A stretch of 64,000 nucleotides of DNA from Plasmodiophora brassicae (taxonomy: Eukaryota): positions 620,001 through 684,000 of the forward strand of contig CP145411.1 of assembly GCA_036867785.1 (NCBI GenBank), in the 5' to 3' direction. Below are positions 1,207 through 4,881 of the stretch, in pieces (position 1 is the stretch's first letter; the number at the start of each line of letters is the position of its first letter). Under the pieces are notes generated by a model. The model saw nothing but the letters and a program-made list of their open reading frames with translations. It searched no databases and had not been told where the DNA came from. Both the position numbers and the translations under genes were made by a program.

Positions 1207-4200
1207 ATGACGGGAGCTGTGCGCGACGATGTTGTCGAAGGCGGGGTTCGCCGCCACATCGACGGCGTTGTCGACGCCCGTGGGTACCCGGCGCCGCTGC
1301 TGCGAGCTCTAGAGCTGTCAAGGACATCGGCGTCTGGGCCGACTGACGTCACGGTCTCAGATGCCGGTGGAGCTTGCTTGTTCTGGCGGAAGAAATCCAA
1401 GGCGGAGATCCCCATCGTACGATGTGGTCCAGTGTGTTTCTGAGTTTCTGTTAAACCCTGCGTTCAGGAAGATGCAATTGATCCAATTTGGATCCGTCTG
1501 TGGGTCTTCCAAATAGTCGCTTTGATGGACTGGTGAGCGTGCTCGATCGTCTATTACGGATCAGTGCCCCTGAGGTTGACGCAGGTTCCACAGACGAAGC
1601 AATACCATGTCGTTTATTGTCCCGCCTAGCGCCATATTTCGTGGCCACCTTGCCAAAAGTCTTGTCGAGCGGCATAGCACTCGACTGACGATTACTACTG
1701 CTGTGCTCGAAACATTTGCAAGCGTATCGTCTAAGCTGGTCAGCTGGGACGATGACGAATGTCGGTATCGTACATCGCCGCGTTTTGGCTACGTATTTCA
1801 TTTATGGTTGTTGGCAGACGGAGCATATTCTGATTGGTCGGCGCCGGAGCAACTGTTAGGAAGCGGGACATCAACAGGGTTTACGGATCTGTGGAAACTG
1901 GGGTTTGCGATCACCTCTACCTGCGTAATGTGCAACTTACATTGGAAAGGTGCCTTTTGTACGAATTTCATGGTCGCGGCGCTCCGTTCGGTGACGGATC
2001 GCCTGGCGACAGATCCTCGTTCGCGCTATTGATAAGGCAGTTTTCGTAAGTTCCCTACGTCATCGGATGCGAAATTTGGTAACAGCTTCGCAGGACGCTC
2101 GGTACACCGACTCCCGACACCTGGCCTGGGGTTGAGGATCTCCCTGGTTACTCCTCGCGGTTGCCTCATTGGGAGGGGAAAAGAATGCAGAGCGTTACTG
2201 TCCCCGATCAGTGTGCTTTAGACCTTATCCAGGTACGTGAACTATGTCCAGTATGGGAAGGCCACCACTAACTTATGGTTGCATACAGAAACTCCTTGTC
2301 ATCACGCCAACAAAGCGGTTAACCGTCGGCGCTGTTCTTGCCCATTCGTACTTCGATGTTCTTCGTCAAACCCGTGACGGGAGTACAAATCTCTGCAACG
2401 ATGCTAAGCTCACGAATATGGTCATTATGACCCGGCTGCGAGCATCCTTTAAGCGTCAGTACCGCAACCTCGGCCGTGCGAGATGGAGGCGAGAAAAGCA
2501 GGCGAAGAAGCTTGCCAAGAATCGACGTCTGCTCCTAAGCTGGCTGATTGATCTAGCCGAAGAGTTGGCATATTGTTTCATGTCTCGAACTTCGATTATC
2601 TTACGTGAAGCTGTAGTGTCAAACTAGGCTGCACGCCTATGTTTACTTGCGCATATCTTTTCGACAGCCTAGGCGATGACAAGAGATCAAGCGACCCCCA
2701 ACTTGACGGTGAAACATGTTTGCTACTCTCAACCAAACTGTCAAGCCACTCGCCTCCGCTGACCATTGCCGATTTGTCGTCATACGCGTGCGATCGTCTG
2801 ACGTGTCAAGACATCCAGCAACGCGAAGTAGCAATCATCAACTCTTGTCGCTGCCATTTCCCTTACGTGACGCCTTTGAACTACCTGCGATATTTCCATG
2901 CGATTACATCGACGACTTGCTCCGTGTCCCGCGACCTATCCTTATACTTCTTGCAGCTGTCTATGGTTCAGTCGCATCTCTTGAATTACTGGCGCAATTG
3001 CTAACCGCTTTATCAGGTCGACGGGCCCGATCCGTTCGGCGACGATCCAGAACTGATTGCGCTTGCCATTATGTGTACCATTCGACAATTGTCTCAGCTT
3101 CCTTCTGACAGCATGGTATGTGCGCGACTGACTCTTGCCTCTTTCCTGGAACTGATGTTCAGAAGAGTGATGTTTTGGATCCGTACATCAAAGAGTACGA
3201 AGACTGTTCGCCCGGCCGGCTCACAGGCAGGTGTGAGGCACGACGATCGGGAAACGAGCAAAGCAGTTGTTCTATGCCCGATAGCTCAGCGATGATCGTC
3301 AAAGATCAATCGGTCGCGGTCTGCATATCACACCTCCTCAAGCTCCATGAACTTGCGCATTCCGATAGTGGGCGGTACGACCTTTATGCCGTGAAAGTAT
3401 GTCCCCCATCGCTCAGGGTAGGTTCGCATCCGACCTCTCATGCTCGTTGATTGCTCAGGCTCGGTTTCCCAATGTTTCGAGAGAGATAGCCACCCCAAGA
3501 TCTGCAATGCGTACGTGTGCACAATATTCATTGTGCTTGTCTTCAATAACTCTTGTCTCCAGCTATGTATGCGATACTGGCAGAAGTGGATCCTTTGGGG
3601 CAGTTGCCGACAGCGCTGATGGTTGAAGTGAGCCGCCCCTGGGCCAGAGTGCTTATTGTCGTGCGCCATCTCAAACTGAAAGTAGATATGCCGCATGCTG
3701 AGCCCAGTAGACCTTGCCAAAACGTCGCTAGTGTCACAGTCGTGGAAAGACTTATCGTTCAAGGCGTCGCTCTGGAAGCACGTTGATATTGGTTCGTGCA
3801 TTGCGTCTGAGGTTACCAATTCCTGATGCTGCAATATCACATAGGAGGGATCCATAATCATTTCATGAAGACGGTTAACAACAGCGGCCAATTTGGGGTC
3901 CTCGCAGCTCATCGATGCCCACTTCTCGAGTATTTATGTCTCTCTGAGACGGCAGTATCGGTCCCGTGTCTTTCGGCTGTGCTTAAATCGTGTCCCCGTG
4001 TCCATACTCTCATTCTGGAGAAGTGCACGTTTGTGGACGGTGCAGGCGAACTCCCAGGTCCTGCAGTTCCTTCCTGTTTTATGGCAGCCTCTAAATACTG
4101 ATTGTAGAGTTTAACCCGCATACCGCGATGAGACGGCTGGACCTCCGTCGCTTGAGGACAAACTCCTCTGTCATAGTCTTAGCTCTTCTCAGGGCGTGCT

Positions 4201-4881
4201 CGCGTTTGTTTCATTTGGATCTGAGCTCGACTGAATATGACCTATCTGACGCTGTCCTCGTCGCTCGTGCAAACGTAAAATCAATAGATCTCACTGCCTG
4301 CACCTGGGTAAATGATGACCTTGTTTCCCGTGAGATTATTCCCCTTCCAATCGCTGGTACTGCGTTCTGATTGTGAAGATGCAGGGATCAGTGGGCTTCG
4401 TTCATGCTACCTGGATATGTGTCGGTATGTCTCCGATCTTGGTATCATCCCCCTCGTGACGGCATCCGAATCACTTCTGGAGCTCGAGTTATGCTACATG
4501 CCGCGCCTGACCGATCGCTCGCTCCTCGCCCTTTCTCGATCGTGCTTGCAGTTGCAAACGTTGGAACTGTCGTTCGGGAACTTCTCGGACGAAGCTATTG
4601 CGACGATTGCCTCCTTGTCCCAGCTGAGAAAGCTTGCCCTGTGCCGCATATCAAGTATCACAGACTCATCAGTCACCCGGATAGCCCAAGGTTGCACGCT
4701 GCTGCAGGACCTTAATCTTCGGATGTGTGAGGGCGTTACGAGTGTATCGTTGTTCGCCATCCTGGGCCATTGTCATCGACTTCAGCAACTGCACGTGTTC
4801 ACCTGCCCGGACGAGTTGGCTGACAAATTTCGTCAACGCAACGTCATTGTAGTAACGCGCAAGTACTATGAATACCAATAA
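1207..4881 (+). CDS. Multi-exon fusion: degenerate CDK-like kinase C-lobe + cyclin + F-box + LRRs
   Basis: CDK motifs WSAPEQLLG, TDLWKLG, TLGTPTPDTWPGVEDLPGY, KLLVITPTKRLT..LAHSYFD; cyclin box RRLLLSWLIDLAE..TCLLLSTKL..PPLTIADL..VTPLNYLRYF; F-box LGQLPTALMVE/ICRMLSPVDLAKTSLVSQSWKDLSFKASLW; AMN1/FBXL-type LRRs to 4881. Junctions from kinase C-terminus to first LRR exon are phase-consistent. Confidence 0.75.

Follow-up and report, generated by a model that had tools for sequence, protein, structure and literature searches.

A predicted dead cyclin-dependent kinase joined to a cyclin, an F-box and leucine-rich repeats in Plasmodiophora brassicae: a candidate SCF substrate receptor

Why would a single gene of the clubroot pathogen Plasmodiophora brassicae encode a cyclin-dependent kinase (CDK), a cyclin and a substrate receptor of the Skp1-cullin-F-box (SCF) ubiquitin ligase as parts of one polypeptide? 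The question is raised by a plus-strand gene at positions 1207-4881 (start ATG at 1207, end including the stop codon) of a 64,000-nucleotide stretch of contig CP145411.1 (assembly GCA_036867785.1, positions 620,001 to 684,000), which is the window to which all coordinates refer; features lie on the plus strand unless stated otherwise. An earlier sequence-only reading had suggested that a CDK-like domain lacking its catalytic motifs, a cyclin, an F-box and leucine-rich repeats (LRRs) follow one another in this gene, and that the product may be an SCF receptor with a built-in CDK-cyclin bait. The gene is real and expressed, with all four domains in one transcribed reading frame, and we consider it somewhat better than even, at a probability of about 0.55, that its protein would act as an SCF substrate receptor using the pseudo-CDK-cyclin pair as a docking platform.

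The protein is already public as a 941-amino-acid NCBI 'unnamed protein product' carrying the UniRef name 'F-box domain-containing protein' (P0001 in what follows), and the translated exon 2289-2561 is 99% identical to it. Spliced mapping of P0001 onto the window yields 17 exons (1207-1416, 1468-1532, 1585-1760, 1818-1902, 1950-2045, 2094-2232, 2289-2563, 2617-2965, 3017-3115, 3166-3230, 3285-3396, 3459-3510, 3563-3627, 3686-3791, 3845-4057, 4108-4329 and 4385-4881, the last including the stop) separated by 16 GT-AG introns of 47-62 nucleotides, with three amino-acid differences between P0001 and the window (S25R, I292L and A587G). As had been claimed, kinase and cyclin meet within an exon: the stop-free open frame at 2241-2627 carries both the CDK C-terminal motif KLLVITPTKRLTVGAVLAHSYFD and the start of the cyclin RRLLLSWLIDLAE, which share exon 7 (2289-2563). 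A basic linker (2373-2495) connects the C-terminus of the kinase to the cyclin box inside this exon with neither stop nor intron, and contigs from three sequencing runs (X1, X3 and X18) cover the region 2286-2563 unbroken.

These contigs, from runs of three separate studies, provide the transcript evidence. No run is recorded as RNA, and those from X1, X3 and X18 are taken as RNA-derived because they show GT..AG joints at annotated introns. Fourteen of the 16 annotated introns are seen as such joints in X1 and in X18, and 11 of these in X3. One 2889-nucleotide contig (X18 record 13) spans 1202-4885 and joins all parts; its internal lengths indicate that intron 2966-3016 is removed too, which brings the count to 15 of 16. 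The three introns said to link the cyclin to the F-box (3397-3458, 3511-3562 and 3628-3685) are all GT..AG, coincide with introns of the P0001 model and are found as joints in X1, X3 and X18, so that a transcript does run across the cyclin and F-box exons. In a further run, X15, none of the annotated introns is removed; it covers introns like genomic DNA and differs from the window at 21 sites in its longest piece. Between the window and the X15 variant, 10 differences are synonymous, 3 are non-synonymous and 7 fall in introns, giving a ratio of non-synonymous to synonymous polymorphism (pN/pS) of about 0.10 on a small sample, and the gene is under purifying selection and not decaying.

The contigs also bear on the length of the product. 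The annotated intron at 3231-3284 is kept in them, the stretch 3165-3396 being contiguous in X1, X3 and X18; it is 54 nucleotides long, in frame and stop-free, and would add 18 residues to a variable loop of the second cyclin box. Since it is retained in all three RNA-like runs, the protein is probably one of 959 amino acids, as against 941 in the public model. At the other end, X1 record 1 runs collinearly with the genome from 1128 onwards, giving a 5' untranslated region of at least 79 nucleotides (1128-1206). From 1128 to the start codon at 1207 no other ATG occurs, and the reading frame meets a stop further upstream, at 1120-1122; taken together with the collinear contig, this indicates that the short N-terminus is real and that no exon has been missed. 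One X3 contig (2617-3032) reads through intron 2966-3016, which holds an in-frame stop, up to the contig end. It is probably unspliced RNA, although if the read-through were a real isoform, it would yield a pseudo-CDK and Cyclin_N protein devoid of F-box and LRRs.

On the spliced protein, Pfam recovers Pkinase (residues 155-279; 33.8 bits with the cut-off at 31.7, the match being confined to positions 161-263 of a 263-position profile), Cyclin_N (residues 327-424, at 2496-2842; 32.3 bits against 23), F-box-like (residues 587-631; 38 bits against 24.3, with 26 bits for the F-box profile) and LRR_At5g56370 (residues 803-899; 33.1 bits against 27). A weak Cyclin_C box at 2867-3189 stays under its cut-off. 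The F-box occupies 3598-3790 and is split by intron 3628-3685, its joints 3510>3563 and 3627>3686 being seen in three runs, and it is followed at 3883-4860 by about 12 LRRs of the FBXL type, recognised from the Pfam LRR match and from the alternating strands and helices of an AlphaFold2 model. When Pfam was run exon by exon, no kinase match was obtained, so the kinase call needs the spliced protein. A scan with NCBIfam gave no match. Domain profiles, the 17-exon map and spliced contigs thus agree with the proposal of four domains in one polypeptide.

Relatives of the protein were collected by an exhaustive phmmer search of 1.84 billion protein representatives; homologue searches with the whole of P0001 and with a profile had returned only P0001 and LRR proteins, other candidates being crowded out. 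The order kinase C-lobe, Cyclin_N, (Cyclin_C), F-box, LRR recurs in P0004, P0005/P0153, P0006, P0007/P0154, P0008, P0009/P0156, P0029, P0033 and P0165. Full-length relatives share 27-31% identity over the matched stretches and 22-26% with P0001 across whole alignments, and the presence of the same architecture at such distances argues that it is no accident of a gene model. The clusters of two relatives are named, as Amorphochlora amoebiformis and Lotharella globosa (chlorarachniophytes, Cercozoa; the Lotharella entries are MMETSP transcripts), and P. brassicae itself is placed in Rhizaria, Endomyxa, Phytomyxea. Judged from these sequences, the architecture spans at least two rhizarian phyla, a range that rests on three named species.

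In one lineage, the chain is longer. Both P0007 and P0154 carry CKS at their C-terminus (PF01111; 75 and 72 bits), and this domain aligns with human CKS2 (1.9e-16) and CKS1 (4.2e-16) over residues 13-76. Just before it, at about 1040-1080 of P0007, part of a second CKS-like start (…VYSDTYK…) precedes a hydrophobic stretch; the record may here retain an intron or contain a small duplication. Another relative, P0033, has an insertion at about residues 310-372 within the dead C-lobe, in which a RING finger and a zinc ribbon are matched weakly and under the cut-offs (E 0.0016-0.0055).

The first 285 residues of P0001 (1207-2372) make up a pseudokinase that family alignments, PDB sequence search and Foldseek identify as CDK-derived. 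Residues 157-281 have CDK3, CDK2 and CDK1 as their best PDB sequence matches (3.4e-19 to about 1e-14), the alignment of the kinase part of P0006 with CDK5 and CDK1 begins near residue 42, and Foldseek aligned the P0001 model to CDK2 over about 275 columns. When the family's 10 full-length clusters and the P0019 fragment were aligned with the intact-looking kinases P0062 and P0085, neither P0001 nor any other of these family sequences showed a Gly-rich loop, a VAIK Lys, an HRD Asp or a DFG Asp. The position of the HRD Asp is occupied by Asn in nine of the 11 clusters, by Ser in Amorphochlora and by Phe in P. brassicae, where the equivalent of the catalytic loop (FHRRSNTMSF, 1586-1615) is also without the loop Lys and Asn; the DFG equivalent is mostly F-A-N across the family and F-A-S in P. 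brassicae (1715-1723), with no Asp. The Pkinase match starts at profile position 152-165 in every relative with the shared architecture, so the catalytic half is unrecognisable family-wide. We regard the domain, from its sequence, as CDK-derived and yet as no CDK enzyme, predicted to be unable to phosphorylate; an active kinase is ruled out by the absence of all four catalytic features and by the limited extent of the Pkinase match in P0001.

What has been kept are the two parts by which CDKs contact other proteins. The C-lobe is whole throughout the family (P-E-x-L-L-G, G-T-P-x-x-x-x-W-P-G-V and the C-terminal helix) and in P. brassicae lies at 1829-2354, where SAPE, GTPTPDTWPGV and KLLVITPTKRL...HSYFD mark the sole part of the kinase that Pfam recognises. 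The PSTAIRE-type helix persists in degenerate form, with the family pattern G-[VF]-[SP]-x3-L-R-E and GYPAPLLRALEL in P0001; alignment with the relatives and with P0062 and P0085 places the remnant GYPAPLLRALELSRT at 1282-1326, and the P0001 model has a helix of low confidence in this region, at residues 29-40. The strands before the helix are gone in P. brassicae, and three N-lobe strands are still drawn by AlphaFold2 for P0007. The sequence-only reading was therefore right about the retained SAPE and GTPTPDTWPGV and about the absent catalytic motifs but not in calling PSTAIRE unrecognisable, since the degenerate helix emerges on alignment. Mean pairwise identity within the family is highest in the C-lobe (0.40), followed by the LRRs (0.37), the F-box (0.31) and Cyclin_N (0.30), and is lower in Cyclin_C (0.24), the N-terminal part (0.22) and the linker between kinase and cyclin (0.14).

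Four residues of the cyclin box, R336, W342, K389 and E419, are invariant across the family. We take R336 and W342 to be the conserved Arg and Trp of the hydrophobic-patch helix, the position of which is occupied by NRRLLLSWL (2520-2546), and K389 and E419 to be the Lys/Glu pair of the cyclin box. The relatives score 23-88 bits for Cyclin_N, and the cyclin part of P0006 has cyclin B1 as its best match (3.8e-21); exon 8 of P. brassicae alone finds only a weak match, to cyclin D1 (4e-4). Cyclin_C is over the cut-off in nine of the 11 full-length relatives scanned, P0009/P0156 and P0029 having no match.

In the F-box/LRR half, the PDB sequence search points to FBXL2 (6O60_C, 1.6e-17) and FBXL17 (6W66_B, 2.3e-15). 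Foldseek likewise places FBXL2 first for the AlphaFold2 models of both P0001 and P0007 (TM scores of 0.61 and 0.74, normalised by target length), then FBXL17 and then chains of CDK1 and CDK2; FBXL2 and FBXL17 themselves are without kinase or cyclin domains. The P0001 model, built on a 14-sequence alignment, has a mean predicted local distance difference test score (pLDDT) of 62 and a predicted TM score (pTM) of 0.41, with the LRRs at 80-94 and a fair C-lobe. The P0007 model (19 sequences) is better overall (mean pLDDT 71, pTM 0.56), with the kinase, both cyclin boxes and the LRRs mostly at 75-92. Complex prediction between residues 1-290 and 318-570 of P0001 scored 0.03 and 0.02, below the mark of 0.34, but it was run without an alignment or controls and constitutes no evidence either way.

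A second family joins the same elements in another order. P0061 and P0108 have an N-terminal F-box, then a kinase with HRN, then a cyclin, and no LRR; in both, the Gly-loop region and the VAIK Lys are preserved and Pfam matches the kinase over its full length. An Atlas cluster of Pkinase and Cyclin_N proteins from oomycetes, which bears the automatic name 'Cyclin-F', is matched by P0061 with a score of 0.99. Kinase and Cyclin_N fusions with an intact HRD also exist (P0085), and Atlas clusters of this layout include some labelled Nucleocytoviricota (giant viruses), which we note as leads only.

Fusions of a dead CDK with a cyclin have a precedent. Four Phytophthora infestans CDKs with C-terminal Cyclin_N/C domains, such as PITG_21617, were described and confirmed by reverse transcription PCR (Judelson and Ah-Fong, 2010; PMC3019232); all four have an Asp-to-Asn change in subdomain VIb and were predicted to be inactive. 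The passages on these fusions report related proteins from other oomycetes and from Paramecium, Tetrahymena and Theileria, state that no description of the combination existed for any species, and propose that the cyclin domain might regulate protein stability. The term 'F-box' occurs 0 times in the main text of that paper, although its Additional File 1 might list one. The rhizarian family shares with these proteins a kinase N-terminal to Cyclin_N/C in one polypeptide, and the subdomain VIb Asn described there (Judelson and Ah-Fong, 2010) is matched in nine of the 11 rhizarian clusters, with Phe instead in P. brassicae. The shared order of the fusion and the mostly shared Asn make a common origin of the rhizarian and oomycete fusions plausible. 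The two types differ in other respects: judged by P0061 and P0108, whose HRN kinase and cyclin are laid out just as in the published fusions, oomycete-type proteins have an N-terminal F-box, no LRR and a retained Gly-loop and VAIK Lys, whereas the P. brassicae family has lost all catalytic motifs and has its F-box and LRRs at the C-terminus, with CKS added in one lineage.

A functional parallel may be seen in the complex in which SKP1-SKP2 was first found, together with CDK2-cyclin A-CKS1 (Rowland et al., 2023; PMC10318019). As set out in that paper, which cites PDB 2AST and 7B5R for the SKP1-SKP2-CKS1-CDK2-cyclin A(-p27) assemblies, CKS1 touches CDK2 on its C-lobe only and also binds the LRRs of SKP2 and phospho-p27, and His392 and Phe393 in the C-terminal tail of SKP2 bind CKS1. 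The C-lobe that serves as the CKS1 contact of CDK2 (Rowland et al., 2023) is the best-conserved part of the kinase in the rhizarian family. The set of parts is the same, a CDK, a cyclin and an F-box/LRR receptor, with CKS in P0007 and P0154. The rhizarian parts differ in being covalently joined, in having a dead CDK and in having LRRs nearer to FBXL2 and FBXL17. We know of no p27-like substrate in Rhizaria. Cyclin F (FBXO1) offers another comparison, as an F-box protein in which the cyclin box serves as a substrate-recognition module and not for kinase activation; its F-box lies ahead of the cyclin box and it has no kinase and no LRR, whereas the P. brassicae order is kinase, cyclin, F-box and LRR.

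How, then, could such a chain work? In the reading that we favour, the F-box would dock on Skp1-cullin, while substrates would be bound by the LRR solenoid together with the pseudo-CDK-cyclin pair. The PSTAIRE-type helix, which is the cyclin contact, and the C-lobe, the sole surface of CDK2 that CKS1 touches, may have been kept as protein-contact parts, and the cyclin box, with its first-helix residues and the invariant Lys/Glu pair, could have been kept likewise. The module would thereby present a CDK-cyclin-shaped bait to the usual binding partners of CDK-cyclin, for example CDK inhibitors, Cks or proteins that carry cyclin-docking motifs, which would be handed to the ligase; the whole would correspond, within one chain, to the SKP2-CKS1-CDK2-cyclin A assembly. 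We infer every binding step in this scheme and the identity of the substrates. Three observations suggest a docking module: an F-box is joined to a dead CDK-cyclin at either end of the chain in two families, conservation is strongest in that lobe of the dead kinase to which CKS would bind, and CKS itself has been added in one lineage.

Several findings weigh against this reading. SKP2 reaches only 9e-7 in the PDB sequence search, where COI1 and SKP2 stand at about 1e-6, far behind FBXL2 and FBXL17, and it ranks 12th and 37th in Foldseek for the P0001 and P0007 models. The receptor half thus appears to be FBXL2/FBXL17-like and no SKP2 orthologue, and the analogy with SKP2, which is drawn from the set of parts, is a functional one only. 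The bait idea of the sequence-only reading is supported in part, by the four domains, the dead kinase and the conserved order, and is strengthened by the CKS fusion and the F-box-first family; the F-box/LRR part is not specifically Skp2-like. The P0001 model has a pLDDT below 50 at residues 1-73 and 427-589, and its poor quality outside the LRRs and the C-lobe leaves the packing of kinase on cyclin unsupported; in the P0007 model, the CKS domain is at a pLDDT of about 30, so its docking position is unreadable. Cyclin_C of P0001 (residues 433-506) reaches 18.1 bits, under the cut-off of 22, and the P. brassicae copy is the most divergent member of the family in every domain and is without the CKS domain. 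Finally, assembled contigs fix neither starts nor ends, and an internal start may yield a shorter cyclin-F-box-LRR product.

Other explanations of the same domain set can be weighed against these data. The cyclin might control a genuine CDK in trans, with the fused dead CDK as an intramolecular competitor or autoinhibitor and the F-box/LRR part timing the protein's own destruction or its localisation. The retained R336, W342, K389 and E419 leave CDK binding possible, and the idea that the cyclin domain regulates stability was put forward for the oomycete fusions (Judelson and Ah-Fong, 2010), but we consider this explanation unlikely, as the dead C-lobe is the most conserved domain, beyond what an inert plug would need, and as the addition of CKS in one lineage and the F-box at the other end in a second family point to recruitment. 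Rather improbable as well is a stoichiometric decoy or scaffold devoid of ligase activity, in which the pseudo-CDK-cyclin would sequester CDK inhibitors or Cks while the F-box merely tethers Skp1, as non-SCF F-box proteins do. Pseudokinases often serve as scaffolds, and the domain content fits a decoy equally well as an SCF receptor; against it, a conserved F-box with about 12 FBXL-type LRRs has the standard form of an SCF receptor, and the best matches, FBXL2 and FBXL17, are SCF subunits.

Two further explanations fare worse. Since P. brassicae reprograms host cell division and F-box/LRR effectors exist in bacterial plant pathogens, the protein might be imagined as a secreted effector that hijacks the SCF or the cell cycle of the host plant, for instance by removing KRP-type CDK inhibitors in gall formation. 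We reject this as very improbable: by eye, the N-terminus MTGAVRDDVVEGG... has no hydrophobic stretch resembling a signal peptide, and the occurrence of the family in free-living, photosynthetic chlorarachniophytes implies that its function predates parasitism. The candidate effector discussed in PMC7317818 is a different, small secreted cyclin; this gene is unnamed in the relevant passages of that paper, in which 'F-box' occurs 0 times. As for merged neighbouring genes or a pseudogene, the degenerate and N-terminally truncated kinase, the failure of exon-wise Pfam to find it and the X3 contig that keeps intron 2966-3016 with its stop are what such an artefact or decay might leave behind. It is scarcely credible here and is largely refuted, because a single stop-free exon holds the end of the CDK and the beginning of the cyclin, spliced contigs from three studies tie all parts together, the frame is intact over 17 exons with a pN/pS of about 0.10, and the architecture recurs in at least nine further clusters at 22-31% identity.

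A wider proposal follows more tentatively, and we hold it to be possible though short of an even chance. Pseudo-CDK-cyclin modules might represent an unrecognised class of SCF substrate-recognition device across Stramenopiles, Alveolates and Rhizaria (SAR), and in Rhizaria the CDK-cyclin-(Cks)-F-box/LRR machine might have been welded into one chain as a natural 'Rosetta stone' fusion. The fusion of partners that are separate elsewhere is a strong hint of a functional link, and four parts (five in one lineage) of the animal complex that destroys CDK inhibitors are found here in one chain, in a distant supergroup where cell-cycle control is almost unstudied. If the proposal holds, the coupling of CDK-cyclin-Cks to an F-box/LRR receptor would be ancient or strongly favoured, and the dead kinase would survive purely as a docking surface. 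If the favoured reading itself is right, the chain would show clearly that a pseudokinase can be retained for docking alone, and it would offer a stoichiometrically fixed model of a CDK-cyclin surface serving a ubiquitin ligase and an entry into cell-cycle regulation in the clubroot pathogen and in chlorarachniophyte algae; it would also suggest what the CDK-cyclin fusions of oomycetes and ciliates, unexplained since 2010, might do.

With respect to novelty, the sequence-only reading had called the architecture unfamiliar. The protein itself is in public databases and the core fusion of a dead CDK with a cyclin was published in 2010, in the sole match of our literature searches for kinase and cyclin fusions (PMC3019232); what those searches did not return is a description of a kinase-cyclin-F-box-LRR(-CKS) protein, and to that extent the earlier impression holds. 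By term search, PMC7317818 and PMC6682161 are not about this gene.

A convergent neighbour on the minus strand overlaps the 3' end of the gene (4820-4875, 4876-5400), and the contigs of this neighbour begin at 4876-4906; a CT..AC joint in X18 (4819>4876) is a minus-strand intron that covers the final coding nucleotides of the F-box gene. At 4920-5990 on the minus strand, the neighbour encodes zinc fingers of the CCCH type (zf-CCCH, 28 bits) and the first part of a RING finger, which make it a makorin-like putative E3 ligase. Upstream, a plus-strand gene at 1-1068 has long Pro/Thr-rich repeats (PTPA..., ATSAP...) and no Pfam match, and further downstream, at 6656-7861 on the plus strand, an open frame encodes a PI3_PI4_kinase domain (73.6 bits).

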